Source of the DNA: Candidatus Woesearchaeota archaeon
GTDB taxonomy: Archaea; Nanobdellota; Nanobdellia; SCGC-AAA011-G17; PNOQ01
DNA: 64,000 bases
Assembly: GCA_043812195.1 (NCBI GenBank)
Contig: JBDRML010000001.1
Location: 1-64,000 of the forward strand
Direction: 5' to 3'
Under the pieces are notes generated by a model. The model saw nothing but the letters and a program-made list of their open reading frames with translations, did not search any database and was not told where the DNA came from. Of this stretch, positions 9,418 to 63,790 are shown one piece after another. Each line of letters opens with the position of its first letter. Position 1 is the first letter of the stretch. The translations under genes and the position numbers were made by a program.

Positions 9418-10044
9418 ATGGACAAAAAAGAGGCTAATAAAGGTTCTATCAAAAAATCCAAACAAAAGTACAATATTTACTATCTCTCTATGGATGATAT
9501 GAACAAGATAATAAATGTCGCCAAATCACTCAGAGATTCATTAGTATTAAAAATATTAGCTAGAACTGGAATGAGGAGATTTGAATTATGCAATCTTAGA
9601 ATACAAGATGTAGACTTTACTAAAAAGAGGATATATATACCAAAAGCAAAAGGAAACAAACCAAGAACAGTACCAATAGATCAAGACACACTCCAAACAG
9701 TAAAGTTTTACATTGGGTCAAGGCAACATGGAAAACTCATTCAAAGCAACAAAAAAGATGTTGATGGGTTGGATGAAAGTAGAATTAATGCAATAATGAA
9801 GAATACAGCAGAAAAGGCTGGAATAAAACATCCAGATCCAATTAAAAAACATATGAATCCTCATATATTCAGACATAGCTTCATTAGACATCTAATTAAG
9901 GTGGGTATGCCTCCGAATTATGTACAACAAATAGCAGGGCACTCAGATATCAGGACAACACTACAAATGTATGGGATACCTGGTATAGAAGACATACAAG
10001 AGAAATATGATCAAATTGTAGAATCTTTTTACACAACAACATAA
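9418..10044 (+). CDS. Tyrosine recombinase/integrase, catalytic domain only
   Basis: TGMRRFEL (R), KAKGNK (K), HIFRHS (HxxR), AGHSD (H), TLQMY (Y); only 208 aa. Confidence 0.93.
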   Translation: MDKKEANKGSIKKSKQKYNIYYLSMDDMNKIINVAKSLRDSLVLKILARTGMRRFELCNLRIQDVDFTKKRIYIPKAKGNKPRTVPIDQDTLQTVKFYIGSRQHGKLIQSNKKDVDGLDESRINAIMKNTAEKAGIKHPDPIKKHMNPHIFRHSFIRHLIKVGMPPNYVQQIAGHSDIRTTLQMYGIPGIEDIQEKYDQIVESFYTTT

Positions 10045-10100
10045 CAAGCTTGCCAAACACCGACGGAAAGTATTTAAATTAATAAATCAATTAAGTTAAA

Positions 10101-10463
10101 ATGAAAAATAAAGGAGTATCTAACACAGTAAGAATCAAAATACTAAAAAGAGATAACTATGAATGCCAAAAATGCGGAGAAGCAGATAAAACAAGCAAAA
10201 CACTAGAGATACACCATGTAAATCCATTTTATCAAAGCCACGACGACAGTTTTAATAATCTAATCACATTATGTTCAACTTGCCACAAATATGCTCCCAA
10301 TTCTACAGAAGAGTTTCAAGGGTATATATCTGATCAAATTAGTGCAATCGCGACGGTATTGTCTAAAATATTTAAAAAAGTTATAGAAGAATATACCGAC
10401 AAGGAATGGGAAGGACTTGAGCAAGAAATAGAAAAAGAACAGAAACTTCCTATCAATACTTAA
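10101..10463 (+). CDS. HNH endonuclease
   Basis: RDNYECQKCG...LEIHHV...NLITLCSTCH. Confidence 0.9.
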   Translation: MKNKGVSNTVRIKILKRDNYECQKCGEADKTSKTLEIHHVNPFYQSHDDSFNNLITLCSTCHKYAPNSTEEFQGYISDQISAIATVLSKIFKKVIEEYTDKEWEGLEQEIEKEQKLPINT

Positions 10464-22499: not shown

Positions 22500-24560
22500 A
22501 TGGTAGAGTTAATAATCTGCGAAAAACCTGCACAGTCAGCAAAGATAGCTGAAGCTCTAGCAGATACTAAACCAATCAAAAAAGAAAGAAATAAAGTTCC
22601 TTATTATGAATTAACACATAAAAAGAACAAAATCTTAATTGGATGTGCAGTTGGCCATCTATATAACTTAGCCAAAATCAAAAATGGACCATATCCAAAT
22701 TTTAATATTGATTGGAAACCAAAATATGAAATGGATAAAAAATCAGCCTACATTCAAAAATACGCAATAATTCTAAAAGAACTAGCTAAAAGAGCAGATA
22801 AATTCACAGTAGCTACAGACTATGACACAGAAGGTTCTGTTATAGGTCACAATGTTGTCAAATTTATTTGCAATCAAAAAGACGCTAGTAGAATGAAATT
22901 CTCAACTTTAACAAAAGACGAATTAATTGAATCATATGAACATAAAAATAAACACTTAAACTTTGGAATGATTAATGCAGGAGAAACAAGACATCACCTA
23001 GATTGGTATTATGGTATCAATACATCAGCAGCACTAACAAATTCAATAAAAGCAGCTAATGGCGGATATAAACAAATGTCATCTGGAAGAGTTCAAGGGC
23101 CCACTTTAAAATTAATAGTAAAAAGAGAAGAAGAGATATCGGCATTCAAACCAGAAACATACTGGGAAATATTCTTACAAGGAATTTTAAATTCAAAACC
23201 AATTAAAGCTAAACACCAAAAAGACAGATTCACAAAAAAAGAAGATATTACAAAAATATTAACCAAAACAAAAAACAAAAAAGCAATAGTAGAAAAAGTA
23301 ACCAAAAAAGAAGTTAAAGTTGAACCACCAGTTCCTTTTGATTTAACTACATTACAAATAGAAGCATACAGAACACTAAGAGTCTCACCTAAAGAAACAT
23401 CTAACTTAGCTCAAGACCTTTATACTTCAGGATTAATTTCATATCCAAGAACAAGTTCTCAAAAATTACCAGACTCAATAGGCTATGACAAAATCTTTAA
23501 AAAATTATCAAAACAAAAAACATACACAAAATTATGTGAAACTTTAATTGGCAAAAAACTAAAACCAAAAGAAGGTAAAAAAATAGATCCTGCCCATCCA
23601 GCTATTTATCCAACAGGAGAAGCTAGTGCTATCACAGGAAAGAAAGCAAGATTATATGATTTAATAGTAAGAAGATTCTTGTCTGTGTTTGGAGAATTCG
23701 CAGTAAAAGAATTAACACATATTCAAATAGATGTTAACACAGAAAAATTTGTCTTATCTGGTTCAAGAGTATTAAAGCCTGGTTGGCAAACTTATTATGG
23801 AGTCTATGCAGAACATAAAGAAGAAGATCTTCCAGAAACTAAAAAAGATGATGAAGTTAAAAAACCTAAAGTTTCATCAGAAGAAAAAGAAACCCAACCA
23901 CCAAAAAGATACACAGAAGCTTCTATAATCAGATTAATGGAATCTAAAGGATTAGGAACTAAATCTACAAGAGCATCAATAGTAGATAAATTATCTGAAA
24001 TAGGATACATAAAATTAAAACCAATCAAAGCCACAGAACTAGGAATTAAAATCATAAAAACTTTAGAAAAATATGTTCCAGAAATCATAGATGAAAAATT
24101 AACAAAACAATTAGAAAAAGACATGGAATTAATTAGAGAACATAAGAAAAAAGAAGAAACAGTATTAGATAATGCTAAAAAATTCTTGACTAAAGTTTTC
24201 AAAACTTTCAAACAACATGAAGTAAAAATCGGAGAAGAATTATTAGAAGCAGCTAAAGATCAAAACGTAGTTGGAACATGTCCAAAATGTAAAAAAGGAA
24301 GTTTGAGAATATTATATTCAAAGAAAACAAGAAAAAGATTTTGCTCATGTGATCGTTATCCTAAATGTAAAAATATATATGGAATACCTCAAAACGGGCT
24401 AGTTAAACCAATGGAATTTGTTTGTAAAGAATGCGGATATCCTCAAGTTCTAGTTATTAGAGCAGGAAAAAGACCTTGGCAATTATGTTTAAGTCCAACT
24501 TGTAAAACAAAAGACTTCATGAAAAATAAAAATTGGAAAAAATCAAGTAAGTCTCCATAA
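22500..24560 (+). CDS. topA: DNA topoisomerase IA
   Basis: ICEKP, ATDYDTEG, SSGRVQ, ISYPRT (catalytic Y), AHPAIYPT, GLGTKSTR, C-terminal zinc ribbons. Confidence 0.97.
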   Translation: MVELIICEKPAQSAKIAEALADTKPIKKERNKVPYYELTHKKNKILIGCAVGHLYNLAKIKNGPYPNFNIDWKPKYEMDKKSAYIQKYAIILKELAKRADKFTVATDYDTEGSVIGHNVVKFICNQKDASRMKFSTLTKDELIESYEHKNKHLNFGMINAGETRHHLDWYYGINTSAALTNSIKAANGGYKQMSSGRVQGPTLKLIVKREEEISAFKPETYWEIFLQGILNSKPIKAKHQKDRFTKKEDITKILTKTKNKKAIVEKVTKKEVKVEPPVPFDLTTLQIEAYRTLRVSPKETSNLAQDLYTSGLISYPRTSSQKLPDSIGYDKIFKKLSKQKTYTKLCETLIGKKLKPKEGKKIDPAHPAIYPTGEASAITGKKARLYDLIVRRFLSVFGEFAVKELTHIQIDVNTEKFVLSGSRVLKPGWQTYYGVYAEHKEEDLPETKKDDEVKKPKVSSEEKETQPPKRYTEASIIRLMESKGLGTKSTRASIVDKLSEIGYIKLKPIKATELGIKIIKTLEKYVPEIIDEKLTKQLEKDMELIREHKKKEETVLDNAKKFLTKVFKTFKQHEVKIGEELLEAAKDQNVVGTCPKCKKGSLRILYSKKTRKRFCSCDRYPKCKNIYGIPQNGLVKPMEFVCKECGYPQVLVIRAGKRPWQLCLSPTCKTKDFMKNKNWKKSSKSP

Positions 24561-25694
24561 ATGAGCACCACCCTTTCCATTACCAACAATTTTAAAATTC
24601 CTAACTTTGCCAAGAGAATTCAAATAAACTAATCTTTTCCACAATAAATTAGATCTAACTTTCAATTCTTTTGATAATTCAACAAGATTGAGATTAGAAA
24701 CCCCTAAATTGCTCAATATCTCTTCATTTAAATTTTTAAACGATTTTCTAGAATTGGCTAGTTCAATACCTAGTTCAAGTCTTTCTTGTTTTTCCTTTAT
24801 TGGAATCTTTTCAATTTTCATGAAATCTTCGTAGATCTTCTCAAAACTTTCAGAGTAAGTTTCCAAATAGTAAGTTCTATTACTTTTTCTAATTTTTCCA
24901 GTCTTATAGGATAAATTATTACAAATTTGCTTTAAATCATTAAGTAAATCTTTATTTCCAGAACTAAAAGATAATTTTCTATCTCTCACAGAGCCTTCAT
25001 CTATAAAAAAAGCCCTGACAAAAGCTACTAAAAGTATTTGTTTTCCTTGAAAAAATTCGTTTGGAATTCTACTTTTATTCCATGTAAAATCTATTCTAAA
25101 TCTATTAATCAGGATCTTAGCAATTGATTTAGGAAAAGAATATCTATACATAAAATATTTTCTATCTTTATGCCAAATTTTACTCAAATCTTTTTTTGAA
25201 ATATCACCAAAACACCTAAATCTATCTATAAATTCTTCAACAGCTTCTTTGCTACTATTATCATACTTGCAAGTTCTATATTTGACGTTCTGAGCAGTAC
25301 CATCTCCTAGCAAATGTGCAAAAATTGCCCTCAAATCAATGGAATCTTTTATGGGCAAAATTGGGTTATCAACTCTGAGGAAGCCATGTATTGCTTTATA
25401 AGATTTAATATTATGGTTTATATCTTCATAATTAATATCCCATAATTCAGAATGTTTAGAATAATCAAAAATCTCTTTTATGTGTTTAACAGAACAGAAT
25501 TGAGGTAACCCACAGGACTTTCCTCTTCTCCAAGAAAGCATTGTAGGATTTGCTACTCCAATTTTTTTGGCAAGATGCCTATAACTTCTATTAATCTTCC
25601 AAGCAGTTTTAAAAAATTTAGCTCTGAAGCCATCCTTCAATAAAATAAAGACATCATCAGGAAAGTCTTTTAAACCAATAGATATTTCTTTCAT
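24543..25694 (-). CDS. Free-standing LAGLIDADG homing-endonuclease-like protein with HTH segments
   Basis: FAHLLGDG and FVRAFFIDEGS motifs; no intein splicing residues at termini. Confidence 0.8.
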   Translation of the reverse strand: MKEISIGLKDFPDDVFILLKDGFRAKFFKTAWKINRSYRHLAKKIGVANPTMLSWRRGKSCGLPQFCSVKHIKEIFDYSKHSELWDINYEDINHNIKSYKAIHGFLRVDNPILPIKDSIDLRAIFAHLLGDGTAQNVKYRTCKYDNSSKEAVEEFIDRFRCFGDISKKDLSKIWHKDRKYFMYRYSFPKSIAKILINRFRIDFTWNKSRIPNEFFQGKQILLVAFVRAFFIDEGSVRDRKLSFSSGNKDLLNDLKQICNNLSYKTGKIRKSNRTYYLETYSESFEKIYEDFMKIEKIPIKEKQERLELGIELANSRKSFKNLNEEILSNLGVSNLNLVELSKELKVRSNLLWKRLVYLNSLGKVRNFKIVGNGKGGAHLWRLT

Positions 25695-25768
25695 ATAACT
25701 TATATTAATTTTTATTTATAAATCACTTTCGCTGGTGGTTGTCGACCTTGTCAACCTGTAGTATAAAA

Positions 25769-26410: not shown

Positions 26411-26433
26411 AGCGAGAGGTGTCTCGCACTCTT
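26411..26433 (+). repeat. Hairpin element copy 1
   Basis: agcgagaggtgtctcgcactctt. Confidence 0.9.
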
Positions 26434-32294: not shown

Positions 32295-32317
32295 AGCGAG
32301 AAGTATCTCGCGCTCTC
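32295..32317 (+). repeat. Hairpin element copy 3
   Basis: agcgagaagtatctcgcgctctc. Confidence 0.92.
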
Positions 32318-32328
32318 ACAAGAGGTTT

Positions 32329-32610
32329 GTGCTTAGAAAAGGATATTCAGATTACTCAAAAAAGAAAAAATCTGTAGAAATAGGGAAGGTATGTATAAAA
32401 AAAGGAGATAAGATACTATTAATTGATGATATTTTTGAAAGCGGAGGCGTTGGTAGGGCAACTATACATCTAATTGAAAAACTTGGAGGAGAAGTGAAAG
32501 GAATTTTTACAGTATTTAATAAGTTAGATAAAACAGGTGAAAAATATTTTAAAAAATATAATTATCATTATTTAATAAAATTAGAAAAAAAGAAGAAAGA
32601 TATTAAGTAA
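32329..32610 (+). pseudogene. 5'-truncated phosphoribosyltransferase (APRT-like C-terminal half)
   Basis: ILLIDDIFESGG PRPP-binding motif with no N-terminal half; bounded by hairpin copies 3 and 4. Confidence 0.7.
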
Positions 32611-33256: not shown

Positions 33257-33279
33257 AGCGAAAGGTTTCTCGCGTCCTC
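33257..33279 (+). repeat. Hairpin element copy 5
   Basis: agcgaaaggtttctcgcgtcctc. Confidence 0.82.
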
Positions 33280-34246: not shown

Positions 34247-37200
34247 ATGATGGACTGGAGTTTATTCAATAAAAAAGAGTATTTAGAACCTTTAGTATTT
34301 TCTAATGGAAAATCACAATTAGATGTTGTTAAAGAAGTAATACAAGCAATTAAAGAAGGACATAAGATAATTTTCATAAAAGGTATCTGTGGCACAGGTA
34401 AATGTCTAGAAAGAGATTCCAGCGTATTTTGTAAACCAAATAATGAAAATCATTTTAGTTATCATAAAATTTCGGAGTTAGTTGGGAAGGGAGGAGATAT
34501 TTTAGCTCTTGATAGAATGGGAAAAATCACAGAGTCTAAGTTTAAAAATGTGAGAAATACTGGTATTAAAAAATTATACAAGATAAAAACAAGAACTGGA
34601 AGAGAAATAGTTGCTTCAGCAAATCATCCATTACTTACTATAACAAAAGAAGGGATAGAATGGCTGCCCTTAGAAAAACTAAATAATTATTCCTATATTT
34701 GTCTTCCAAATAAAATTTCTTTTGGAAGAGAATTAGATTATGATAATGATAAGATTAAAATTCTTGCCCATTTAATTGCAGAAGGTAAATTAGGGGACAA
34801 GGCTGGGTCTCCAATTTATTTTCAAAGTCCAAGTAAAAACCCAGAAATAAGAAAAGATTATATCTCTTCATTAAGAAGAGCATTCCCAGATGGAGAAATA
34901 AAAAGCTATTGTGAAAAAGATGTTGCTATTGTTTTTAGAAATATGAACACAACTAAAGGAGCCACAAACAAACTAAGACTTTTCATTAGGGAGCATGGGT
35001 TGGATAAAAAAAAGTCCAGCCAAAAATTTATACCCAAAATAATATTTAATTTAAAAAAAGAAAAAATTTCTTTATTTTTAAGTAGATTGTTTTCTTGTGA
35101 TGGAAGTATCTATCAAAAAAAGAAGGATGGCCAAATAACTATTGAATATTCTTCTATCTCAAAAAGATTAATTCAAGACGTTTCTCTTTTACTTCAAAGA
35201 TTTGGGATCCAACATACAATTACTTCGAAAAAATTTAAAGAAAATAAAGAATATGCTTGGATAATTTGTATTTCAAATCACAACTCTCTTAGAAAATACA
35301 TAGATGAAATTGGCTTTGTTGGTAGAAAACAAAGATTAGCTTTGAAATTATACAACAAACTAAAAATACATAAATTTACCAATATTGATAAAGTTCCAAG
35401 AGTCATACGTGAATATTTAAAAAAGAAGGGATATAACTATACTGAACTCGATAGATTTTTAAATTACGAAAAAATTGAAGAATCTAGAAAGAAAAAAAGT
35501 TTTAAACAGATAAGAAAAGATAAATCAATAGAAACTCCTTTTGTATTTAATCAACAAAAAATTGATTTTTTAAGAAGCCATATTAAAAAAATAAATAATT
35601 ATATCAAAGATGACACTCTTTCTTTTATTTGCAATGAAGATATCTTTTGGGATAAAGTAAAATCAATTGAATATATAAAAAAAGATGAAACTTATGATTT
35701 AGAAGTTCCAAAAAATCACAATTTTATTGCGAATGGAATCATTGTTCATAATTCTGCCATTGCATTAAATATAGCTAAAGAAATCGGTAAAACATCTATT
35801 GTAGTCCCAGTTAAACCATTGCAAAAACAATACGAAGAAGATTACACAGATAAAATGTATGTTCTAAAAAAAGATGGTAAAAAATTAAAAATAGCCATTA
35901 TTGATGGAAGAAACAACCATAGATGTATCTTTAAATCAAATTGCATGGCAGATGACAGATATATTCCATGTACTATTGAAATAAAAGAAGATAACCTTAA
36001 CTTACTAAAAGAATACCTACACCAAAATAAATTTGTAAACACCAAAGGCTTCAAAAAATTAAAAGACATCAGAAGAAAATCCATAGCACCTGCATGCCCT
36101 TATTGGTCTCCAATTTTACACAAAGATATGTTTGAACAAGATTATAGCATAGAAGACGCAGAAGAAATAAATTATCAAGGTCTTCAAAACAAAACATTCA
36201 CTTATTTCCAAAGAGAAAAAGGCTGCAAGTATTACAACCAATTCTTAAATTACCTTAATTCAGATGTTATTGTATTTAATAGTAAGAAATACGAACTTGA
36301 AAATTTAATGGATAGAAAACCAGCAACAGAAATAGAAATAATAGATGAATGTGATGAATTTTTAGATAATCTTGCAAATGAAAAAAAAATAAACCTAGAT
36401 AGACTATCACTGGTGCTTTCAAATGTAAAAACTAAAGATTTCGATTTAAAAGAAATAACAATAGAAATTAACGATTTAGTTCTTGAATTATTAAATGATA
36501 AAAAAATCTCTGAAAAAGAAATATTTCCAATCAAAAAAACTAAAATCTATCCATTATTAAAACATTTCACATCAAATGCAGGATTAATCGATTTAGAAGA
36601 AGAAGAAACAGATTATTTATACAATGTATATCAAACAGGAAAATCTTTTGAAGATTACTTTGATGAAACCTATGTAACATTTTATAGAAATGATAGAAAT
36701 GAATTATTAGTTAATATAATTACAGTAGATCTTGAAAAAAAATTAAAAGAGTTCTTAGATAAAAATAAGGCTTTTGTAATGATGAGCGGAACTATCCATT
36801 CTGAAATGATATTAAAAGAAGTTTTCGGAATTAAAGATTTTAAGATAATAGAAGCAGAAGTAAATCCAATTGGCAAAATCAAAAAAATAAGAACAAAATT
36901 AGAAAAATGTTTTGATTATCAAACTTTAAAACAAAATGGAGCTAGAGAAGCATACTTAGATGCTCTTTCTAGAGCTGTAGAAGTAGCTGAAAAACCGGTT
37001 TTGGTTCATGTGAATGCATTTAAGGATTTGCCATCTAAGGAAGAGTGTTTACGGTTTAATATTTCAAATTTGAAAACCAAAGAAGAGCTTATGATCGAAC
37101 AAAATGAATATAGGCGTGGTGAATTAGTCAAAAAATTTAAAGATAAGGAAATTGAAGTTCTTTTTTCAACTAAATGTAATAGGGGCGTAGATTTTCCAGG

Positions 37201-37432
37201 TGAAATTTGTAATAGTATTATATTCACAAAATATCCATATCCTAATGTAAGTTCTTTATTTTGGCAAATATTAAAGAAAAGTAAGCCTGAATATTATAGT
37301 ATGTTCTATAAAGATAAAGCTGAAAGAGAATTCTTGCAGAGAGTTTACAGGGGTCTTAGGTCAGAAAAAGATCATATAAACATTTTAAGCCCGGATATTA
37401 GGATTTTGAATTCCATTGGGTTGGTTAAGTGA
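34247..37432 (+). CDS. XPD/Rad3/DinG-like SF2 helicase containing an intein
   Basis: GICGTGK|S Walker A split by intein, Cys cluster (HRC..C...PC...ACPY), IIDECD, MMSGT, RGVDFPG, QRVYRGLRS. Confidence 0.88.
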   Translation: MMDWSLFNKKEYLEPLVFSNGKSQLDVVKEVIQAIKEGHKIIFIKGICGTGKCLERDSSVFCKPNNENHFSYHKISELVGKGGDILALDRMGKITESKFKNVRNTGIKKLYKIKTRTGREIVASANHPLLTITKEGIEWLPLEKLNNYSYICLPNKISFGRELDYDNDKIKILAHLIAEGKLGDKAGSPIYFQSPSKNPEIRKDYISSLRRAFPDGEIKSYCEKDVAIVFRNMNTTKGATNKLRLFIREHGLDKKKSSQKFIPKIIFNLKKEKISLFLSRLFSCDGSIYQKKKDGQITIEYSSISKRLIQDVSLLLQRFGIQHTITSKKFKENKEYAWIICISNHNSLRKYIDEIGFVGRKQRLALKLYNKLKIHKFTNIDKVPRVIREYLKKKGYNYTELDRFLNYEKIEESRKKKSFKQIRKDKSIETPFVFNQQKIDFLRSHIKKINNYIKDDTLSFICNEDIFWDKVKSIEYIKKDETYDLEVPKNHNFIANGIIVHNSAIALNIAKEIGKTSIVVPVKPLQKQYEEDYTDKMYVLKKDGKKLKIAIIDGRNNHRCIFKSNCMADDRYIPCTIEIKEDNLNLLKEYLHQNKFVNTKGFKKLKDIRRKSIAPACPYWSPILHKDMFEQDYSIEDAEEINYQGLQNKTFTYFQREKGCKYYNQFLNYLNSDVIVFNSKKYELENLMDRKPATEIEIIDECDEFLDNLANEKKINLDRLSLVLSNVKTKDFDLKEITIEINDLVLELLNDKKISEKEIFPIKKTKIYPLLKHFTSNAGLIDLEEEETDYLYNVYQTGKSFEDYFDETYVTFYRNDRNELLVNIITVDLEKKLKEFLDKNKAFVMMSGTIHSEMILKEVFGIKDFKIIEAEVNPIGKIKKIRTKLEKCFDYQTLKQNGAREAYLDALSRAVEVAEKPVLVHVNAFKDLPSKEECLRFNISNLKTKEELMIEQNEYRRGELVKKFKDKEIEVLFSTKCNRGVDFPGEICNSIIFTKYPYPNVSSLFWQILKKSKPEYYSMFYKDKAEREFLQRVYRGLRSEKDHINILSPDIRILNSIGLVK
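34403..35752 (+). mobile_element. 450-aa intein with LAGLIDADG endonuclease
   Basis: N-terminal C(LERDS), ASANHPLL block B, LAHLIAEG and LFSCDGS, TYDLEV.KNHNFIANGIIVHN followed by S. Confidence 0.95.
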
Positions 37433-37440
37433 TTTATTTT

Positions 37441-37463
37441 AGCGAGAGGTGTCTCGCGCTCTC
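37441..37463 (+). repeat. Hairpin element copy 6 (directly after helicase)
   Basis: agcgagaggtgtctcgcgctctc then ttttagata. Confidence 0.95.
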
Positions 37464-37512
37464 TTTTAGATAAGTTTTTATATGTTTGGATACTATGCTA
37501 TGATATATTAAA

Positions 37513-38661: not shown

Positions 38662-38728
38662 AAAAAGATAATATAAATATTTTAAGTCCAGATATTAGGA
38701 TTTTGAATTCTATTGGATTGGTTAAGTA
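38662..38728 (+). repeat. Displaced copy of helicase 3' end (~65 bp)
   Basis: aaaaagataatataaatattttaagtccagatattaggattttgaattctattggattggttaagta matches ~37365-37430. Confidence 0.9.
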
Positions 38729-38751
38729 AGCGAAATGTGTCTAGCGCTCTC
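38729..38751 (+). repeat. Hairpin element copy 7 (degenerate)
   Basis: agcgaaatgtgtctagcgctctc then ttttagata. Confidence 0.82.
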
Positions 38752-42997: not shown

Positions 42998-43020
42998 AGC
43001 GAGAAGTGTCTCGCGCTCTC
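42998..43020 (+). repeat. Hairpin element copy 11
   Basis: agcgagaagtgtctcgcgctctc. Confidence 0.95.
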
Positions 43021-43067: not shown

Positions 43068-43337
43068 ATGAAAAAATATACACCAATAATAAAAAATATA
43101 GTTGCAATAGTTGATTTAGAAACTAGTTTAGATTTAGAGAGCCTATCAACTCAACTAGAAAATGTTAGTGAATACAATAAAACAAAATTTCCAGGATTAT
43201 GTTTAAAATCAAAAATCCCCGGATTATCTTATCTTCTATTTGAAAATGGAAAGGTTGTTTTAACAGGGGCTAAATCTGAAGAAGAATTACAACAGGGAAC
43301 TGAATATATATTACACATTTTGAAGGATAATCTTTAA
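43068..43337 (+). CDS. Single-repeat TATA-binding-protein domain protein (half TBP)
   Basis: NIVA.VDL...LDL..L......EYN...FPGL........LLFENGKVVLTGAKSEEEL; 89 aa. Confidence 0.85.
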   Translation: MKKYTPIIKNIVAIVDLETSLDLESLSTQLENVSEYNKTKFPGLCLKSKIPGLSYLLFENGKVVLTGAKSEEELQQGTEYILHILKDNL

Positions 43338-43364: not shown

Positions 43365-43422
43365 CATATAAACATTTTAAGTCCTGATATTAGAATTTTT
43401 AATTCTAAGTTGGTTAAAAGTA
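43365..43422 (+). repeat. Displaced, diverged copy of helicase 3' end (~58 bp)
   Basis: catataaacattttaagtcctgatattagaatttttaattctaagttggttaaaagta. Confidence 0.82.
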
Positions 43423-43445
43423 AGCGAGAGGTTTCTTGGGTTCTC
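43423..43445 (+). repeat. Hairpin element copy 12 (degenerate)
   Basis: agcgagaggtttcttgggttctc. Confidence 0.78.
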
Positions 43446-43599
43446 TTAAAAAAAGCAAAAAGCTTTAAAAGTTAATTTCCTTGCTATTAAACAAAAGATA
43501 TGATAGATTTGGTTGTAATATGGAAAATGACAAAAACAATATACTTAAACAAGGATTTTAAACCAAAACTATTGGCAGTGGCAGATAAACTTAGAAATA

Positions 43600-44901
43600 A
43601 TGAAGATGAATAAAAAAGAAATTTCAGAACTTATAAAAACAGGAGAAGGATATACTCTTGAATTCAAAGAAAGTTTAAGTAGTTCTATTGGAAAGACAAT
43701 ATGCGCTTTTGCAAATTCTTCAGGAGGAAAAATTATTTTAGGAGTTACAGATAATGGGGTTGTTAGGAGTTATAATCTAAATAACGCTGACCGTTCAAAA
43801 ATTGAAAATATTGTAAGGAATATGGATCCTTCATTTCGAGTAAATATAGAACAGGTTTCAGATTTAGTTGTGATTTATGTTCCTGAAGGTAAAGAGAAAC
43901 CTTACGCCATAAACGGGCATTTTTATTTAAGGCAAGGAGCAAATTCACAACAATTAAGGCGGGATGAAATTAGATCATTATTCCAGAGAGAGAATTTAAT
44001 TAGATTTGATCGTAAAGCCAATCAAGAATTTGATATGAAAGAAGATTTTGATAAGAAAAAATTCAAATCATTCATTACCAAAACTGGGATTGACAGTTCT
44101 TTGCCTAAACAACATATCTTAAAGAATTTAGGTTTAATTACTGAAAATAAGCTTAATAATACAGGAGTTTTATTTTTTTCACATCGCATTTCTAAGTTTT
44201 TCTTAAATTCTGTCATCACCTGTGTGTTATATAGCGGGAGAACAAAAACAAAGATTTTGGATAAAAAAGAATTTGATGCAGATTTTGTTTCTAACTTCAA
44301 TAATGCCGTCATTTTTGCATTAAAAACACTTAAAACAGAATATGTTATTGAAAAAGTTGAAAGGGAAGAAAAACATGAAATCCCTGAAAAAGTTTTGCGT
44401 GAATTAATAATCAATGCAATGATTCACAGAAATTATTTTTCAGAAGGCCGTATTTTAATTGAGATTTATGCAGATAGAATTGAAATTACTAATCCAGGAG
44501 AGCTATTATTTAAGAAAAGTGATTTGGGGAAAAGAAGCCTTGCCAGAAATCCTCTTTTAGTTGATTTAGTTCACAGGCTGCAATTTGTGGAAAAAATAGG
44601 CTCAGGTATTAAAAGAGTCAAAGAATTAATGGGGAGTAAAATTAAATTTGATATAGATTCTGACTGGTTTGGAGTGATTATTAAGAGAAATGACACTGTA
44701 AATGACACTGTAAATGACACTGTAAAAATCATTTTATCTGAATTAAGAATTAATCCTAATATTACTTATGATGAACTAGGAAAGAAAATTGGTAAAAGCA
44801 GGAGCACAATTATTCGTCATATTGACAAACTAAAAGAAAAGGGTATTGTAAAGAGAATTGGCTCAGATAAAGGAGGACATTGGGAAGTGGTTGGAAAATG
44901 A
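43600..44901 (+). CDS. AlbA_2/Schlafen + HATPase_c_4 + wHTH protein
   Basis: GEGYTLEFKE, ICAFANSSGG.I.LGV.D, RELIINAMIHRNY, RNP, EKIGSGI, RIGSDKGGHWEV. Confidence 0.88.
   Translation: MKMNKKEISELIKTGEGYTLEFKESLSSSIGKTICAFANSSGGKIILGVTDNGVVRSYNLNNADRSKIENIVRNMDPSFRVNIEQVSDLVVIYVPEGKEKPYAINGHFYLRQGANSQQLRRDEIRSLFQRENLIRFDRKANQEFDMKEDFDKKKFKSFITKTGIDSSLPKQHILKNLGLITENKLNNTGVLFFSHRISKFFLNSVITCVLYSGRTKTKILDKKEFDADFVSNFNNAVIFALKTLKTEYVIEKVEREEKHEIPEKVLRELIINAMIHRNYFSEGRILIEIYADRIEITNPGELLFKKSDLGKRSLARNPLLVDLVHRLQFVEKIGSGIKRVKELMGSKIKFDIDSDWFGVIIKRNDTVNDTVNDTVKIILSELRINPNITYDELGKKIGKSRSTIIRHIDKLKEKGIVKRIGSDKGGHWEVVGK
44689..44724 (+). repeat. 12-bp in-frame tandem repeat x3 (NDTV linker)
   Basis: AATGACACTGTA x3. 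Confidence 0.9.
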
Positions 44902-44958
44902 AAGATCTAAAGAAGAATTTAAAGAGAGTTGTGTGCACGTTTATGGTAAACTACTACT

Positions 44959-45531
44959 ATGAAAAAGAAAAGGCAAAAACCATGGGAAACAAAATTAATT
45001 GAAAAAATTATTGATGTTACTGGTTATTGTTTTCCTGGAGCGGAAGAAGAAGCATTGAAGCAGTTTAACAAAGTAAAAGCTAAAGAAATTTCTGTAATGC
45101 GAACTAAAGTAGATTTTGATCGTGGTTTTCAAACATGGTTTTTATTAAAATATTTAATCGAAGAAAAATTTACACCAATGGAAGTTATTTCTGGAAACCC
45201 GTCAAATTATTTTACAAAAAGAGAATTGCAAATGGTTGATAACTTTCTCAATAATAAAGAGGGCTTTTATGAAATAATATCCATCTCAAGAGACAAAAAA
45301 GACTTTACCATAAAGAATGTTATGAATAGCGAGATTATTTCTGTAAAAACAATTGATTTTCCCAACAAATTAAGTAAAGGAGAACATATTTATACAATTC
45401 CTGTGCAAAAGCTTGATGGAAACTATTTCTTTTACGGCAATGTAACATGTTATTCAAAAGAGAATTGTGTAGATATTGTAAATCTTACAAAGATAGAAAA
45501 AGCACATAGGTTAAGTTTATATGAGAGATGA
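44959..45531 (+). CDS. Hypothetical protein, possibly 3'-truncated
   Basis: Its TGA stop is formed by the first bases of the helicase duplicate. Confidence 0.55.
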   Translation: MKKKRQKPWETKLIEKIIDVTGYCFPGAEEEALKQFNKVKAKEISVMRTKVDFDRGFQTWFLLKYLIEEKFTPMEVISGNPSNYFTKRELQMVDNFLNNKEGFYEIISISRDKKDFTIKNVMNSEIISVKTIDFPNKLSKGEHIYTIPVQKLDGNYFFYGNVTCYSKENCVDIVNLTKIEKAHRLSLYER

Positions 45532-45841
45532 ATTAGTCAAAAAATTTAAAGATAAGGAAATTGAAGTTCTTTTTTCAACTAAATGTAATAGGGGTGTAGA
45601 TTTTCCAGGTGAAATTTGTAATAGTATTATATTCACAAAATATCCATATCCTAATGTAAGTTCTTTATTTTGGCAGATATTAAAGAAAAGTAAGCCTGAA
45701 TATTATAGTATGTTCTATAAAGATAAAGCTGAAAGAGAATTCTTGCAAAGAGTTTATAGAGGTCTTAGGTCAGAAAAAGATCATATAAATATTTTAAGTC
45801 CAGATATTAGGATTTTGAATTCCATTGGGTTGGTTAAGTAA
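45529..45841 (+). pseudogene. 311-bp duplicate of helicase 3' end
   Basis: 45529-45839 matches 37120-37430 with about 8 substitutions by eye; encoded protein identical. Confidence 0.93.
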
Positions 45842-45863
45842 GCGAGAGGTTTCTCGCGCTCTC
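45841..45863 (+). repeat. Hairpin element copy 13
   Basis: agcgagaggtttctcgcgctctc; the next (minus-strand) gene's stop begins at 45864. Confidence 0.95.
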
Positions 45864-46478
45864 TTAATTAAAATAACCTTCATACTGTTCTAAATGTTCA
45901 AAGAACTTTTTAGCATATACCTCGCAATTTGGTTGCAATTGGGCATCAAGATCTCCATGGCACCCAAAATTTGCATATGCATTTCCATATATTTTATCAT
46001 ATTCAATAATTTTCTTTATAGTATTGGGAGGAACTATTAAAGGAATTCCTTCGTTTTGATAGTATTCTACAGAATGAGGAGGCATCATATTAATTTCTGA
46101 ATAATTATACCAAACTTCAAAATCTCCTAAATTTTCAACTTTGCCCCTTTTCTTCACTTTTTCAGTTTCTTGATAATATAGATTATCTTTATTAAAAACC
46201 AAAACAGTAGCCACGATTCCAGCATAATAAAAAGTATTCTCATTTGTAATGTTCCTATTTTTATCCTCAGCAATCAGCATAGAATAATATCCCCATTCAT
46301 CACCTTCCAGTCCTGCCCCTCCTACTTCTGAATTAGGAATATACCCTTCAGGAAGTTCGGTATTAACAAAACTTAAAAATAAATTATTATCCTTTTCTAT
46401 ATCAAGTTTAGAAAACTTACATCCTGAAATAGGCAAGATAATTAAAATAATTAAAATAAATAATAACTTCTTTTTCAT
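45864..46478 (-). CDS. Putative lipoprotein
   Basis: ISGC lipobox. Confidence 0.7.
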   Translation of the reverse strand: MKKKLLFILIILIILPISGCKFSKLDIEKDNNLFLSFVNTELPEGYIPNSEVGGAGLEGDEWGYYSMLIAEDKNRNITNENTFYYAGIVATVLVFNKDNLYYQETEKVKKRGKVENLGDFEVWYNYSEINMMPPHSVEYYQNEGIPLIVPPNTIKKIIEYDKIYGNAYANFGCHGDLDAQLQPNCEVYAKKFFEHLEQYEGYFN

Positions 46479-57629: not shown

Positions 57630-60531
57630 CAAAGAAAAATTAAAAAAATTTAAAGAACAACTTAGAAAAATGTTTAGAAGTGATGAACCAGATTTCAACT
57701 GGGGGGTTTATAGGATAATAAAACAAAAGAATCAAGATGTTGATGATTTTATTGAAAATGAGATTCCAAATATAATCAAAGATAATTTAAAAGTTTTATA
57801 TGCAAAAAGTGTTGAAAGTTTAGAAAAAGAACTTGATGAGATTAAATCAGATTGTCAAAAATTGGGTGTTGATTATGAAACAAATGAGAGGCATAAAGAA
57901 AAATTAAAAGAAAAGAAAGAATTAACAGAAATTGGAGATATTGAATCCCAAATTTATAATGATTTATTGGAATTTTTTTCTAGGTATTTTATAGATGGGG
58001 ATTTTATTTCTAAATTCTATTACAAAAATGACCAATACATGGTTCCTTACGATGGTTCTGAAACTTATTTGCACTGGGCAACAAAAGATCAGTATTATAT
58101 AAAAACCTCTGATGTTTATAATAGATTAAGTATCAATGCAGGAAAATTTAATATAATATTTAGGGTTGTTCAAGCAGATCAAGAAAAAGGCAATGTTAAA
58201 GCTAAAGGTGATAAATTTTTTGTTTTAGATAAAAATGCTTTTGAACTTAATAAAGATACAAATGAGTTTTTTGTTAATTTAAATAATATTGTTGGTGATG
58301 ATGAAATAAAAGAAAAAGGTAAAAATAAATCTGAAATACAGGAAAAATTAAACGAAGAAATACTTAATGAATTAAAAAATGAACTAGAAAAGAATAATAT
58401 CAAATGTAATGAAGATTTTGAAAAGGTTTTGAAAACTTTCCAAAAAAGATATACTAAAGATTTTTTCATACATAAAAATTTGAAAGAATTTTTAAGTGGT
58501 GAGCTAAAAACTTATGTAAAAAATGAGATTTTTGATCTTGATAAAGTTATAGATATAGAGATAAAGATAAATAAAGAGTTGATAGTTCAATCTCAAACTT
58601 TGAAAAAGATTGCAGATAAAATAATTGAAAGACTTGCATCTATTGAAGATCTTAAAAGGAAAGTTTGGGAAAAGAAAAAGTTTATTTTTGATACGGGATA
58701 CTGCATGACTTTAGATTATATAAATAAAAAATATTATAAAGATGTTTTAAAGAATAAAAAACAAATAGCCGAATGGGTCTCTTTAGGTTTTATAAAAGAA
58801 AGCATGTTAAATGAGAAATATTTAGAAGAAAATCCCACTTTAGTTATTGATACTGCTTTTTTTGATATTGACTTCAAATACAAAATATTATCTGAAATTG
58901 ATGATTTGGATGAAAAAATTAATGGTATTTTAATTAATTCGGAAAATTTCCAGGCATTGAATCTGTTATTAAATAAATACAAAGAGAAAATTAAGTGTTG
59001 TTATATAGATCCGCCATATAATACTGGAAATGATGGGTTCTTGTATAAAGATGGATTTAATCACAGCAGTTGGCTAAGTTTAATGAATGATAGATTAATA
59101 TTAACGAAAGAATTATTGAATAATAATGGGGTTTTTTTTAGTAGTATTAATGATATTGAGTTAAAAAATTTAAATAAAATAGCAGACTCCATATTTGGAA
59201 ATGAAAATTTCATCGTAAATTTAGTCTGGGAGAATAAAGAAGGGGGAGGTAGTTCTGATAGTAGATTTTTCAGAATCAAGCACGAATATGTTACTTCTTA
59301 TTCAAAAAATACAAATACATTAAAACTTGATGGAGATATTAAAGAAGAAGACGAAGCTTATAATTATAATGATAGGTTTGTAAAAGAAAGAGGCAAATAT
59401 AAATTAATAAAATTAAATAGCTTCAGTATAAGATCTTCACCTAGCCTACAATATGAAATTGAACTTCCCAATGGTGAAAAAATTACTCCTCATGAAGGCG
59501 GAAAAAAAGGTTGTTGGAGATGGAATGAAGATCAATTTAAGTGGGGTTTAAAGAACGAATTTATTGAATTCAAAAAAAATGCTGAAGGAAAACTTTGGGT
59601 TTATACAAAACAATACTTTAAAGTGGATCATAAGGGAAATGAGATAATTAGAAGTGTTCCATATAGGGCGGTTATATCTAAGTTTTCTAGTACCCAAGCA
59701 ACAAAACAATTAGAAAAATTATTTGGAGATAAACCATTTGCATACTCAAAACCAACCGATTACATTAAGTTTTTATTAAACTTAAGCATAAATCAGAAAT
59801 TAAATGATAATTTTTTAGACTTTTTCGCTGGTTCAGGAACTACAGGTCATGCAGTATTAAAACTAAATAAAGAAGATAGAGGAAATAGAAAATTTATTCT
59901 CGTAGAAATGGGGCAATATTTCGATACTGTTCTTAAACCCAGAATATTAAAGGTAATTTTCTCTGATAATTGGAAAGAGGGAAAACCATTAGACAATAAG
60001 GGATCTGAAAAACAAATTATAAAATATCAAACACTAGAACAATATGAAGATTCATTAGAAAACATACAATTCAAACAAACAGATTTAAGGGGATTGGATA
60101 AAGTGGACAAGGAAACACTATTTAAATATGATTTCAATGAAGTACCAAAAAAAAGTAAAACTTTTCTTGGAGCAGATATAGAAAAAAATTGGAGAGATTT
60201 TAGTATTTTAACACTAGATAAAAACTTAAAAGCAAATCCAATAAAAGTTGACCTAATTGAAACTTTTAATTACTTAATAGGGATGTGGATTGATAAATAT
60301 CAAATAAAGGAAGACAAACAAAGAGAATATATTGTAATAAAAGGTAAGATAAAGGATAAACCTTCCATAATCATTTGGAGGGACAACAAAAATTTGATTC
60401 CAGAAAAAGATAAAAAATTCATAGAAGAAGAAATAATTGAAGGTGAGAAAGTTGAAAATATCTTTGTAAATTCAGATTGTATGATAAAAGGAGCAAAACA
60501 TATTTTTAATGAGATGAGAAAAAGATTATAA
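57622..60531 (+). CDS. mod: Type III R-M DNA methyltransferase (Mod)
   Basis: YIDPPYNTG and DFFAGSGTTGHA; HWATKDQYYIKT N-terminal motif. Confidence 0.92.
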   Translation: MIDKEKLKKFKEQLRKMFRSDEPDFNWGVYRIIKQKNQDVDDFIENEIPNIIKDNLKVLYAKSVESLEKELDEIKSDCQKLGVDYETNERHKEKLKEKKELTEIGDIESQIYNDLLEFFSRYFIDGDFISKFYYKNDQYMVPYDGSETYLHWATKDQYYIKTSDVYNRLSINAGKFNIIFRVVQADQEKGNVKAKGDKFFVLDKNAFELNKDTNEFFVNLNNIVGDDEIKEKGKNKSEIQEKLNEEILNELKNELEKNNIKCNEDFEKVLKTFQKRYTKDFFIHKNLKEFLSGELKTYVKNEIFDLDKVIDIEIKINKELIVQSQTLKKIADKIIERLASIEDLKRKVWEKKKFIFDTGYCMTLDYINKKYYKDVLKNKKQIAEWVSLGFIKESMLNEKYLEENPTLVIDTAFFDIDFKYKILSEIDDLDEKINGILINSENFQALNLLLNKYKEKIKCCYIDPPYNTGNDGFLYKDGFNHSSWLSLMNDRLILTKELLNNNGVFFSSINDIELKNLNKIADSIFGNENFIVNLVWENKEGGGSSDSRFFRIKHEYVTSYSKNTNTLKLDGDIKEEDEAYNYNDRFVKERGKYKLIKLNSFSIRSSPSLQYEIELPNGEKITPHEGGKKGCWRWNEDQFKWGLKNEFIEFKKNAEGKLWVYTKQYFKVDHKGNEIIRSVPYRAVISKFSSTQATKQLEKLFGDKPFAYSKPTDYIKFLLNLSINQKLNDNFLDFFAGSGTTGHAVLKLNKEDRGNRKFILVEMGQYFDTVLKPRILKVIFSDNWKEGKPLDNKGSEKQIIKYQTLEQYEDSLENIQFKQTDLRGLDKVDKETLFKYDFNEVPKKSKTFLGADIEKNWRDFSILTLDKNLKANPIKVDLIETFNYLIGMWIDKYQIKEDKQREYIVIKGKIKDKPSIIIWRDNKNLIPEKDKKFIEEEIIEGEKVENIFVNSDCMIKGAKHIFNEMRKRL

Positions 60532-60532
60532 A

Positions 60533-63500
60533 ATGGAAAAAAAATATAGTGAAGACCTAAGTAATTTGTTATCAACTTCAAGAATACTTTCAAAATTATT
60601 GGGTTTTGATGATCAACATCAAATACTGAAAAAATTTAATGATGCTAATTTAACATATGATTTTTTAGAAGGAAAAAGTAATTTAATAGATTTATTAATA
60701 GGATATAAAAAAACAAAAGAAATTGATTTAGATATCATAACAGAATCAATGTTGTTAATGTTTGATGAAAATATAAGAAAACATTTAGATCACATAAATA
60801 AGTATAGAGAAGATAAAATAGAACCAAGAAACTTTCAATATCTTGCTTTATTGTTTTCTGAAATTTTTTTGTATTTTAAATTTAATGAAAATGATTTTTT
60901 AGAGATTTTAAATGAGTATGTAGACTTACTAAATAAAAATAGCATTGAAAAATTTGATTATTATAAAAAAGAAGATTTAAATAAAATTTGTTTTTGGATG
61001 GCGACAGGATCTGGAAAAACAATAATCATGCACATTAACTTCTTACAATACTTACATTACAATCCAAAAATAAATAAAATAATTTTAATAACTCCCAATG
61101 AAGACATGTCTAAACAACATAAAGATGAATGTGATGAAGATAATATAAACTCTTCAATAATTGACAGTTCAAATTTAAGATATTCGTCACTCAAAAACTC
61201 CATAAATATTTTTGATATAAATAAAATTAAAGATAAATCCGAAAAAATAACAAAAAACAAAGGGAAGACAATAGATTACAAATCATTTGGAAAAAATAAT
61301 TTAATTCTTGTTGATGAAGGGCATAGAGGTTCAAAGGGAGATAAGTGGATGAAATTAAGAAAAGGAATTTCAGAAGAAGGTTTTACCTTTGAATATAGTG
61401 CAACATATAATGATTTCCTTGATGAAAAAAATAAAAATAACACAGATGATTACAAAAGAACAATTATTTTTGATTTTTCATATAAGTATTTTTATCATGA
61501 AGGCTACGGCAAAGATTATGATATTTCATATGTAACTGAGAAAGATAAATATACCAATAAGATGAGAGAATATATAATGTTGGGGAATCTATTAAGTTTT
61601 TATGAACAAAAAAAATACTTTAAAGAATATAACAAAGAATTAGAAGATTTCAATATTGAAGATCCATTATGGTTGTTGGTTGGTTCAAGAGTAAAAGAAG
61701 ATAATAAGTTAGATGGCACAACAAAATCAGATATTGCAAAATTTGTATATTTTTTAAATGAACTAACGAACGAAGGATTAGACGAAAAAATAGAAAAAAT
61801 ATTGACTCAAAAAACCGGAGTAAAAAAGAAAAATACCAACAAAGATATTTTTACAAACAGATATAATTACTTGAGAGAACTATTAAAAAATAGATTCAAT
61901 GAAAACTATTCTAAATTGATTGATGATATTTTTAAAGTTGTTTTCTATGCAACACCAAATTCTGATCTAATTTTAACAGATATAAAAAATGGAGAGGGGG
62001 AATTAGCATTGAGTTACTCAAGTGGAAAAAAACCATTTGGTTTAATTTATGTTGGCAAGGGAAGTGAAAAGGACTTGATTAAAAAAATTAGTGAGAATCA
62101 TAAAAATATAAGAAAAGAAAGTGATAAAATTGGTAATTCTTTATTTCCTAGTCTAAAAGAAACAAAGGAAGAAATCTATCCACTTAATTTATTAATTGGT
62201 GCAAAAAAATTTATAGAAGGGTGGAATAATTTTAGAGTTTCTTCAATATTACTCCTTAACTTTGCAAAGGGTGCGGGTGCATCAGCAATTCAATTATTTG
62301 GAAGAGGAATAAGATTGAGGGGATATGATCGTAGTTTAAAAAGATCTGGTTTTAATAATATTGAAGCACCAAAGAATATTAAAATAATAGAGACACTAAA
62401 CATTTATGGGATTGAAGCTCACTATATGCAAAAATTTCTAGATGATATTGGAACAGATTTAGAAATTACTAGCACAATTGAAAAAGACATACAAGTAATC
62501 CCAGATAAATACGGATTAAAAAAAGAATTCGGAAAAGAGTTGTACTACATAGATAACCCCACAGAAAAAGAAGTAGAGTTGACAAATAGATTAACAATAT
62601 GTGGTTTGAAAAAGATGCAAATAACTTTAGATACGTATAATTATGGTATGTCTTCAAAATCTAAAGGAATTAGCAAAGAAGAAGCAAAAGAAAAAAAACA
62701 AACAGTTTCTAAACAAACATACTATAATAACTTTAAAGATTTTATAGATTGGAATGAAATATACTCAAATGTATTAGAATACAAAAGAAATGTCGGTTCT
62801 AGACAAACAACAAATAATTATTATTCGAATTTCTATATTGATGGAATAGATGATTTGAAAAATGTATTTGAGAATAAAGATATAGCGATAACTGTATACG
62901 GGGAAGAAAAGGAATTTTATATGGATAATAAATCTATAAAAGAATTGTATGAAATGAGAGAGAAAATCCAGAACATATATACTGACATAATTAAAAAATT
63001 GATAAAGTTAACTCATACTGCAAAAATAAGAGGTAAAACAGAAGCAGCATATAAATTGACTAAATTAGAAGATAAACACATGATTGATGATTATAAATTA
63101 ATAATTGAACTAAAAGAAAATAAAGTGTTGGCGGAAGATCTTGGTTTAAAAAATATTTTCGATAAATTCATTGAAAAAGAAAGAATATTAGATTTAGAGG
63201 ATGATGAATTAAATGACTTTGTAGAAAAAGAACAAGATAAAAAAGAGTTTATATTAAAATTTAATAAACATTTATATTTTCCTCTTTTAGTTTCTCATGA
63301 AAAAGAAAAATATTCTTTGTCTCCAAAAGGTTTGATTTCTTCCGAAGAATCTTTTGTAAGAAAACTAAAAAAATACATTGAAACTAATGAGAAATCGATA
63401 AAAAATAAAAAAGTGATGTTGTTGAGAAATCATGAAAATAAAGGCATAGGATTTTATATGAAAACAAAAAAATTCTATTATGACTTTATTTTATGGGTGA

Positions 63501-63790
63501 TTGATGAAAATGAAAAACAAAAAATATCATTTATAGATCCAAAGGGATTAGTTCATGGGGATGAAGAAAAAGAAGAATTCAACAAAAATGAAATAAAAAA
63601 AATAGAAGAAAAAATCAAAGAAAAAGAAAATAAGGATTTTGAATTGCTTACATATATTATAACTCCAACGTCAAAAGAGGATATAGCTAGTGCCATGATA
63701 AGAGAAGATCCGATTGGCTCAAATGTTTATTTAGAAGAAGATATTTACGATTTATTTAATAAACTGTTTGAGATTAATCAAGAAGATTAG
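60533..63790 (+). CDS. res: Type III R-M restriction subunit (Res)
   Basis: [43 protein letters not shown]...FIDPKG. Confidence 0.92.

Follow-up and report, generated by a model that had tools for sequence, protein, structure and literature searches.

A duplicated helicase 3′ end at the edge of an accessory module in a Woesearchaeota genome

DPANN archaea have tiny genomes, and the gain and swapping of accessory genes in these organisms are poorly understood. A 64,000-nucleotide (nt) stretch from a Candidatus Woesearchaeota archaeon, referred to here as the window, contains an intact gene for an XPD/Rad3-like helicase and, 8.4 kb downstream, a second copy of the end of this gene. How did a gene end without its gene come to lie there, and why does it still look like a part of a working gene? 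Both copies belong to an array of short repeated sites that separate small sets of accessory genes (modules), and these modules are exchanged between strains by crossovers inside the site or at its edge. The explanation towards which we lean is that the second copy is a relic of a helicase 3′ end that travels as the right-hand tail of an accessory module, was captured once, and has been kept gene-like by conversion.

The two helicase ends and the array of sites

34247–37432, forward strand: intact helicase gene, 1061 amino acids (aa), XPD/Rad3-like, with Helicase_C_2 at residues 909–1055 and an intein with a LAGLIDADG domain at residues 73–502
37120–37432, forward strand: copy A, the 3′-terminal 313 nt of the intact helicase gene, with AAG TGA as last codons (pairwise alignment)
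37440–37465, forward strand: site copy after the helicase gene, spacer AGGTGT, preceded by a 9-nt stretch, TTTATTTTA, that the tails lack
43446–45863, forward strand: copy-B module, comprising the gene for a Schlafen/AlbA_2-HATPase_c_4-wHTH protein (43600–44901), the gene for a 190-aa protein (44959–45531), the helicase tail and the closing site
45529–45841, forward strand: copy B, a 313-nt helicase 3′-end relic, ending AAG TAA (ungapped alignment to copy A)
45842–45863, forward strand: site core closing the copy-B module, spacer AGGTTT (match to the core pattern)

A repeat search aligned positions 37109–37408 with 45518–45817 at 96% identity. In the helicase frame, copies A and B differed at nine of 312 nt. 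Eight of these differences were synonymous third-position transitions (copy A/copy B: 37186 C/T, 37267 A/G, 37339 G/A, 37348 C/T, 37351 G/A, 37381 C/T, 37390 C/T and 37393 G/A), and the ninth (37431, G/A) turns the stop codon TGA of copy A into the TAA of copy B. The 103 sense codons of both copies gave the same translation. Past the stop codon, copy A continues with TTTATTTTA and then GCGAG, whereas in copy B GCGAG follows TAA directly, resulting in a 9-nt indel; both copies then run into the same 28-nt repeat. A preliminary description of this DNA had given the location of the duplicate and the eight codon pairs exactly, as confirmed by an alignment check that ran ungapped over the full extent of 313 nt. 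Its identical protein from both copies was recovered for 103 of 103 sense codons, and its statement that the copies differ by synonymous changes only holds for these codons but overlooked the altered stop codon, the 9-nt indel, and the common 28-nt repeat.

The probability of eight synonymous differences out of eight, at 57.3 synonymous and 251.7 non-synonymous sites, was ~1.4e-6 (unweighted), and eight random transitions were all synonymous in 17 of 100,000 simulated trials (P ~1.7e-4 under neutrality). In agreement with the preliminary description, these values argue against a young local duplicate in neutral decay. Upstream of 37120/45529 the similarity stops: a single 30-nt window of the 78 tried reached 60% identity, with a 5-nt shift, and colinear homology just left of 45529 was rejected because this best window gave no more than 60% over 30 nt.

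26412–52193, forward strand: array of 15 co-oriented site cores (15 matches versus 0 expected, 100 shuffles), starting at 26412, 27967, 32296, 32611, 33258, 37442, 38730, 39234, 41666, 42999, 43424, 45842, 50801, 51766 and 52172

The site core, GCGAGARGTNTCTCGCGCTCTC, was found in 19 copies in the genome, 18 of them on contig C1, on which the window lies (15 in the window and three on the opposite strand at 66918–69751), and one on contig C34. A column profile of 28 distinct copies showed that conservation spans ~28 nt only, with the layout TA(A)GCGAG, a spacer ARGTNT, and the right arm CTCGCGCTCTC followed by T's. Conservation is strong in the right arm and weaker in the left one, and two spacer positions are variable. 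The consensus AAGTAAGCGAG-AGGTGT-CTCGCGCTCTC has the 11-6-11 organization of Xer/dif sites, with arms complementary at 7 of 11 positions; on folding, the site formed a 6-bp hairpin or a short alternative only. A TATA-like stretch follows most sites. Rfam gave no family within 26–53 kb. The exact site was found in 0 of 60 relatives and was absent from GTDB contigs and from viral contigs, and the matches listed for a relaxed site pattern were single hits, all from bacteria or haloarchaea.

Between the sites, one to five accessory genes lie in either orientation, forming ~14 modules in a row. The site copies at 33258 and 37442 bound the helicase gene together with its two small upstream open reading frames (ORFs). 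Three further modules are closed by shorter helicase ends.

38662–38729, forward strand: short tail, last 68 nt with TAA end, closing a DUF4064/DUF4352 module (repeat search)
43365–43423, forward strand: short tail of ~58 nt with indels, more diverged, closing a module with a single-lobe TATA-binding protein (TBP) (repeat search)
51698–51765, forward strand: short tail, last 68 nt with TAA end, closing a YdjM module (repeat search)

The short tails sit directly before a site, and the intact helicase gene together with four tails (58–313 nt), each in front of a site, represents a set of direct repeats of a gene 3′ end; 11 of the 15 sites are tail-free. Among the metagenome contigs described below, a further short tail was found in L013 and a second long tail (copy B′) in L021. 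The tails at 38662, at 51698 and in L013 begin at the same point, 68 nt ahead of the stop codon. Aligned locally with 465 nt of the helicase, the DNA upstream of the short tails showed no decayed helicase sequence (z −1.1 to 0.7); given these scores, a tblastn-type match at 51598–51762, interrupted by three stops, was rejected as an extension artefact.

Exchange of modules and origin of the tails

The genome (938 kb, 45 contigs, 28–31% GC, 90% complete) was assembled as a metagenome bin. Public metagenome contigs were scanned for the exact site core, giving 18 loci. Six of these, with 54–68% GC and a coding context, were discarded as chance matches, and the other 12 had 25–32% GC; 11 of the 12 matched the genome at 97–100% identity, and the remaining one (L017) gave no match and represents a module absent from this genome. 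Logan contigs from runs X1, X2 and X4 were also used; they are short and broken at sites, and most of the joints listed from them had sides of 21–30 nt and were left unused.

Five of the 12 low-GC contigs were rearranged with respect to the genome (L013, L014, L021, L022, L028), and in 5 of 5 cases the breakpoint lay ≤6 nt from a site. Six others (L015, L016, L020, L026, L027, L029) were colinear with contig C1 across sites, with seven sites covered. One joint, that of L021, can be read: copy B′ is followed by a site and then by the TBP module (from 43021 on). The site in this joint combines the left arm of the copy-B site with the spacer and right flank of the site at 42999. These mixed arms place the crossover within the core, past the stop codon. 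A contig from run X1 contained a similar joint (51763 to 42997), site 32296 has a new left-hand module in L028, L022 differs from 6 nt past the helicase's site, and the breakpoints of L013 and L014 lie at site 66918 and at the C34 site, respectively. At the junction represented by C1 69730, L015 and L026, identical flanks enclose three different spacers. Modules are exchanged between strains by crossovers inside the site or at its edge, and recombination with DNA of related strains, for which the preliminary description had argued, is seen at this level.

Two of these contigs also match other contigs of the genome. Positions 1–49 of L022, 6 nt beyond the helicase's site, are identical to contig C40 7966–8014, with no site beside the C40 stretch; this 49-nt match may represent either an assembly join or an insertion sequence end. 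L026 links one end of C1 (68976–70662) to an end of C31 (23244–24240) through ~4 kb of intervening DNA with genes for TspO, a pyrimidine-dimer glycosylase, a nucleotidyltransferase, and a PD-(D/E)XK protein.

The cargo of the modules comprises radical-SAM/SPASM proteins, a MazE/AbrB-like protein, several DUF proteins, the single-lobe TBP, the Schlafen/AlbA_2-wHTH protein, YdjM and a NosD-like protein. PADLOC gave weak viperin-like matches for two radical-SAM/SPASM proteins and a match of the Schlafen domain to a model associated with prokaryotic Argonaute (pAgo). The TBP protein is an 89-aa ORF with one TBP repeat (3e-22; 43068–43337) that forms its own small module, with differing left neighbours in L027 and L021. 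A 93-aa ORF (32329–32610) fills the 293-nt module between the sites at 32296 and 32611 and matches only positions 80–141 of a 158-position phosphoribosyltransferase domain, a fragment bounded by sites. In the region of the opposite-strand array (three sites, C1 66918–69751), radC occurs as a full gene (235 aa) and as two 5′ fragments, of 166 and 82 aa (minus strand, C1 63774–64481, 66943–67443 and 68689–68937; L031 = C1 52001–70662), and the 166-aa fragment ends exactly in a site that supplies its stop codon. The block between the arrays (54146–63790) is of defence type, with genes for a Csa3-like CARF-wHTH protein and for a fusion of a UvrD-type helicase and a PD-(D/E)XK nuclease, followed by a type III restriction-modification pair (Mod 57622–60531, Res 60533–63790).

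Two further features lie at the left junction of copy B.

45469–45528, forward strand: 60-nt filler that separates copy B from the conserved portion of the 190-aa gene and gives the 190-aa ORF a non-family C-terminus
45521–45841, forward strand: predicted 106-aa ORF, copy B plus ATG, C-terminal part of Helicase_C_2 (46.6 bits versus a cut-off of 25.3)

The 190-aa gene belongs to a protein family restricted to Woesearchaeota (members of 184–225 aa). DNA homology to its nearest relative (L245, 81%) covers window positions 44960–45468 only, and the protein diverges from its family after approximately residue 170. The end of the homology at 45468 indicates that the join removed the native terminus of this gene, with 60 nt remaining before copy B. 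In 0 of 2 related loci was a helicase fragment found after the 190-aa gene. L021 retains the left linkage (end of the 190-aa gene plus tail) with a different right neighbour, and a Logan contig from run X2 covers 45392–45733 with 0 differences and spans the left junction. Its presence in both demonstrates that the junction is real DNA. The preliminary description had called for reads spanning both copies; the left junction of copy B is spanned by independent contigs, but no Logan contig bridges copy A to copy B, and the two copies are seen on one molecule in contig C1 only.

For the origin of the tail, four long copies of the helicase end were compared: copy A and copy B of the window, copy B′ of L021, and copy A′ from the intact helicase gene of L022, which is 97.3% identical to the window gene over 2190 nt. 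The intact genes on C1 and L022 have C, A and G at 37186, 37267 and 37351, and end with TGA plus 9 nt, whereas copies B and B′ have T, G and A at these positions and end with TAA, the 9-nt insert being absent. Judged from these shared states, the tail stems from a helicase lineage distinct from that of the resident gene, as had been suggested. The identical left junction with the 190-aa gene and the shared markers further indicate that B and B′ go back to one capture of the helicase end of this other lineage. The accompanying idea that one copy replaced the other finds no footing: the data do not tell the resident from the incoming copy, and the two end types split by kind of copy, with TGA plus 9 nt in 2 of 2 intact genes and TAA in 6 of 6 tails (the four short ones where readable).

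Synonymous divergence (dS) over the 312 nt was 0.154 between A and B, 0.113 between A and A′, and 0.093 between B and B′; over the rest of the gene, dS between the intact alleles was 0.094. As B–B′ divergence is about that of A–A′, the duplication is approximately as old as the split of the sampled strains. The recent replacement assumed in the preliminary description is at odds with these values and with the presence of the duplicate and its exact left junction in L021.

The same findings bear on an alternative that we regard as possible but rather unlikely, namely that, in the sense of the preliminary description, a circular element with a helicase-end copy crossed over in the helicase 3′ region, so that the gene took up the incoming end and the resident end was pushed 8.4 kb downstream, where it became copy B. 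Serial integration at one att site typically leaves an intact gene with partial copies of its 3′ end deeper in the island, and the junction beside the helicase indeed differs between C1 and L022. Working genes also carry states of copy B: L022 has four of the eight (37339, 37348, 37390, 37393), and the helicase contigs of X1 and X4, which start upstream of 37120, have two of the eight (37339, 37348). However, a crossover in the tail would leave a fragment with the stop codon of the resident gene and the left arm, yet the end types went with genes (2 of 2) and tails (6 of 6). Furthermore, the only readable crossover, that of L021, lies to the right of the stop codon, where it yields no gene fragment, and the equal B–B′ and A–A′ divergence speaks against a recent event. 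The B-type states in intact genes also answer in part the earlier expectation that an intact helicase with the allele of copy B should exist elsewhere: up to half of the states were found, but the gene in L022 ends with TGA plus 9 nt.

The gene-like appearance of the tails was analyzed at the segregating sites. Among the four long copies, 12 of 12 segregating coding sites were synonymous third positions, and the differences between B and B′ were synonymous in 5 of 5 cases, though both are fragments. In the three 22-codon short tails, which cannot give a protein, nine of 11 differences from the intact alleles were at third positions (P = 0.0014). This bias in the short tails indicates that the coding-type pattern is a property of the whole tail set and not of a functional 106-aa ORF. 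The description of both copies as functional alleles under purifying selection therefore stands in so far as the mark of coding selection is present (eight of eight differences synonymous); two functional histories are unproven, since the fragments B and B′ display the same pattern. At 37333 and 37336, copy B and the gene of its own genome share the rare states C and G, whereas B′, L022 and the contigs with intact genes from X1 and X4 have T and A; in combination with 37186, all four gametes are present. These patterns point to short-patch gene conversion between the helicase gene and the tails. By this route the tails would draw their variation from variants already passed by selection in working genes, so that all differences would be of a kind tolerated by a working helicase. 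The synonymous-only pattern is better explained by such continuing conversion than by a recent replacement.

Taken together, the reading that we favour comprises three steps. The tail would have been caught once by an illegitimate join, which trimmed the native end of the 190-aa gene and left the 60-nt filler. In the one swap that can be read, that of L021, the upstream module kept the left arm and all that lies leftward, and the downstream module brought the spacer and the right arm. Since capture, short-patch conversion with the resident gene and the other tails would have kept the tail gene-like.

Several results weigh against this reading. The common 68-nt left boundary of tails in unrelated modules is unexplained by a single chance capture. 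A search for a half-site or pseudo-site at the left end of copy B gave none (score 10 versus a shuffle mean of 10.0, z ~0), and neither the ORFs of the array and its surroundings (26–53 kb) nor those of the metagenome variants have a recombinase domain. Spacer variation at C1 69730/L015/L026 is not predicted by a single fixed crossover point. The conversion argument draws on four long sequences, two of them from contigs (L021, L022) that may be different strains, and the conversion tract would need to end between 37336 and 37339. Finally, no independent contig for the right junction of copy B (45863 to 45864) was found among the metagenome and Logan contigs.

Recombinases and further explanations

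Contig C36: XerA-like protein, 264 aa, 201 bits versus a cut-off of 220
Window 9418–10044: XerA-like protein, 208 aa, no N-terminal domain, covering model positions 83–263 only, 16 kb from the first site
Contigs C15 and C45: XerA-like proteins of 420 aa and 399 aa, respectively

The genome has these four tyrosine recombinases. For each of them archaeal XerA was the closest type, but none reached the NCBIfam cut-offs for XerA and IntI. The best score with the integron integrase model TIGR02249 was 168 bits (C36) versus a cut-off of 265, the 208-aa protein reaching 87.5 bits. One serine recombinase and one Y1 transposase are also encoded in the genome, both on other contigs. The gene for the 208-aa recombinase is followed by one for a 120-aa HNH protein (region 9418–10463), whose best match is the HNH part of IscB. 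Our guess, from the layout of the site, is that a XerA-type tyrosine recombinase encoded elsewhere may act in trans on the sites.

This guess can be extended to a second reading of the array, offered tentatively and considered unlikely: integrase-less modules would be moved in trans by a housekeeping-type XerA at a dif-like site and kept as an integron-like store, with the tails as working parts, either as an extended left arm or as a homology patch. If the tails were working parts, their common 68-nt boundary and their gene-like upkeep by conversion with the resident helicase would both be explained. If true, the array would be an archaeal counterpart of Xer-exploiting elements.

The 106-aa ORF might alternatively be an expressed and selected cargo gene for a stand-alone C-terminal half-domain of the helicase, which we consider improbable. 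Its first 11 nt are shared with the end of the 190-aa ORF, which fits coupled translation, and L021 has the same start, and the five B–B′ differences are all synonymous. Moreover, 35 other short database proteins (78–185 aa) share 57–72% identity, a few of them on contigs of 4.8–17 kb; most lie on contigs <2.5 kb and may be genes cut at contig ends. The N-terminal RecA domain and the beginning of the second one are missing from the predicted product. The third-position bias is shared by 22-codon tails without coding capacity, so that selection on the fragment is not needed for it, and neither the two loci related to the 190-aa gene nor the helicase loci treated next contained such a fragment.

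Relatives of the helicase were collected as 457 confirmed stretches, of which 80 loci from Woesearchaeota/Pacearchaeota were kept; in 80 of 80 the helicase relatives were 59–77% identical. A second helicase fragment within 10 kb was found in 0 of these 80 loci, and a repeat of the gene end in one, a marginal 24-nt repeat only; a general hot spot at this helicase across relatives was ruled out on these grounds. With 51.7–55.9 bits for Helicase_C_2 (PF13307, cut-off 25.3), the intact gene belongs to the XPD/Rad3-like helicases. In 23 of 24 genomes of the family another helicase type is encoded, of ~610 aa and with 130–145 bits on Helicase_C_2. No helicase of this family type was found in the 90%-complete genome, where 34247–37432 is the only Helicase_C_2 gene. 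The helicase itself may be horizontally acquired cargo. The family XPD may have been displaced by an intein-bearing helicase of foreign origin (relatives L119–L124). A free-standing 383-aa LAGLIDADG ORF (24543–25694, minus strand) lies between a topoisomerase gene and a RadA/RadB-like gene; in the 99%-identical L029, its region (24533–25761) is replaced by 320 nt (1365–1684) with a different small ORF.

The location of the helicase between two site copies, its unlikeness to the family type, which fits horizontal acquisition, and the loss of the native end of the 190-aa gene, as a deletion would cause, would all agree with copy B being what remains of a second complete helicase module that arrived from another strain and was later deleted down to its last 313 nt. 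We hold this to be scarcely probable: relics of the helicase 5′ part were not seen, and a common 68-nt boundary in three tails is not expected from deletions that occurred independently. An assembly artefact, in which the helicase ends of two strains were merged and no genome has both copies, is very improbable, as the left junction of copy B joins a non-helicase gene in two independent assemblies (L021; X2 with 0 differences) and six metagenome contigs are colinear across seven other sites, although the genome is a metagenome bin, no Logan contig bridges A to B, and the right junction of B has no second contig.

In the reading that we favour, the duplicate is a datable marker within a hot spot of module exchange. 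Modules can carry pieces of a neighbouring gene, and sequence exchange between these pieces and the working gene would continue. When a gene and its fragment differ by synonymous changes only, this alone is no proof of recent arrival, as gene conversion can give the same picture. If a Xer-type enzyme of the host drives the exchange, the array would represent a gene-capture system without a dedicated integrase.

Comparison with known systems

Three kinds of systems resemble the array in part. Elements that integrate at gene ends are the first; in staphylococci, staphylococcal cassette chromosome (SCC) elements insert at the end of rlmH. In Prochlorococcus, tandem integrative elements termed tycheposons leave partial tRNAs (bioRxiv 10.1101/2020.12.28.424599), and tandem integrated archaeal elements and their module exchange have been reviewed (PMC8371274). 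Such tandem elements share with the present locus an intact target followed by accessory modules, several of which end in a partial 3′ copy and a short direct repeat, as well as a module content that differs by strain and the occurrence of integrase-free modules. Unlike in those elements, no module here has an integrase, and most sites have no helicase fragment. The readable crossover is past the stop codon, which sets the fragments apart from the crossover repeat itself, and the target helicase may itself be cargo.

Integrons are the second kind. Their attC sites are imperfect palindromes of 57–141 nt (R″-L″…L′-R′) ending GTTRRRY. Archaea, Nanoarchaeota among them, are reported to have integron arrays and clusters of attC sites lacking integron integrases (CALINs) (Ghaly et al. 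2022, PMC9668308). No literature linking "Woesearchaeota" with "integron" was found, the genome lists in the supplements of PMC9668308 being outside that search. The array resembles an integron or CALIN in that co-oriented, near-identical sites separate accessory genes in an order that varies between strains, and a CALIN in particular in that no integrase is adjacent and the sites are more alike within the genome than elsewhere. It differs in the site of ~28 nt, which is no folded attC of 57–141 nt, in the absence of IntI, in modules that hold one to five genes in both orientations, and in the TATA-like stretch after most sites. Some copies, but not all, have a GTTRAGT motif on their left, which is not the side expected for R′. 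For want of both IntI and an attC-type site, the array falls outside the integrons.

Systems using Xer recombination are the third kind, and include IMEX (integrative mobile elements exploiting Xer) and pdif modules as elements using Xer/dif sites. The dif site itself is 28 bp long, with two 11-bp imperfect inverted arms and a 6-bp spacer, and is used by XerA in archaea (Cortez et al. 2010, PMC2958812). A dif site is a single copy at the replication terminus, whereas the present genome has 19 copies in two facing arrays, which sets the site apart from a chromosomal dif. The likeness lies in the 28-nt site of 11-6-11 layout with one arm better conserved, in tyrosine recombinases that are all of XerA type, and in elements that are free of an integrase.

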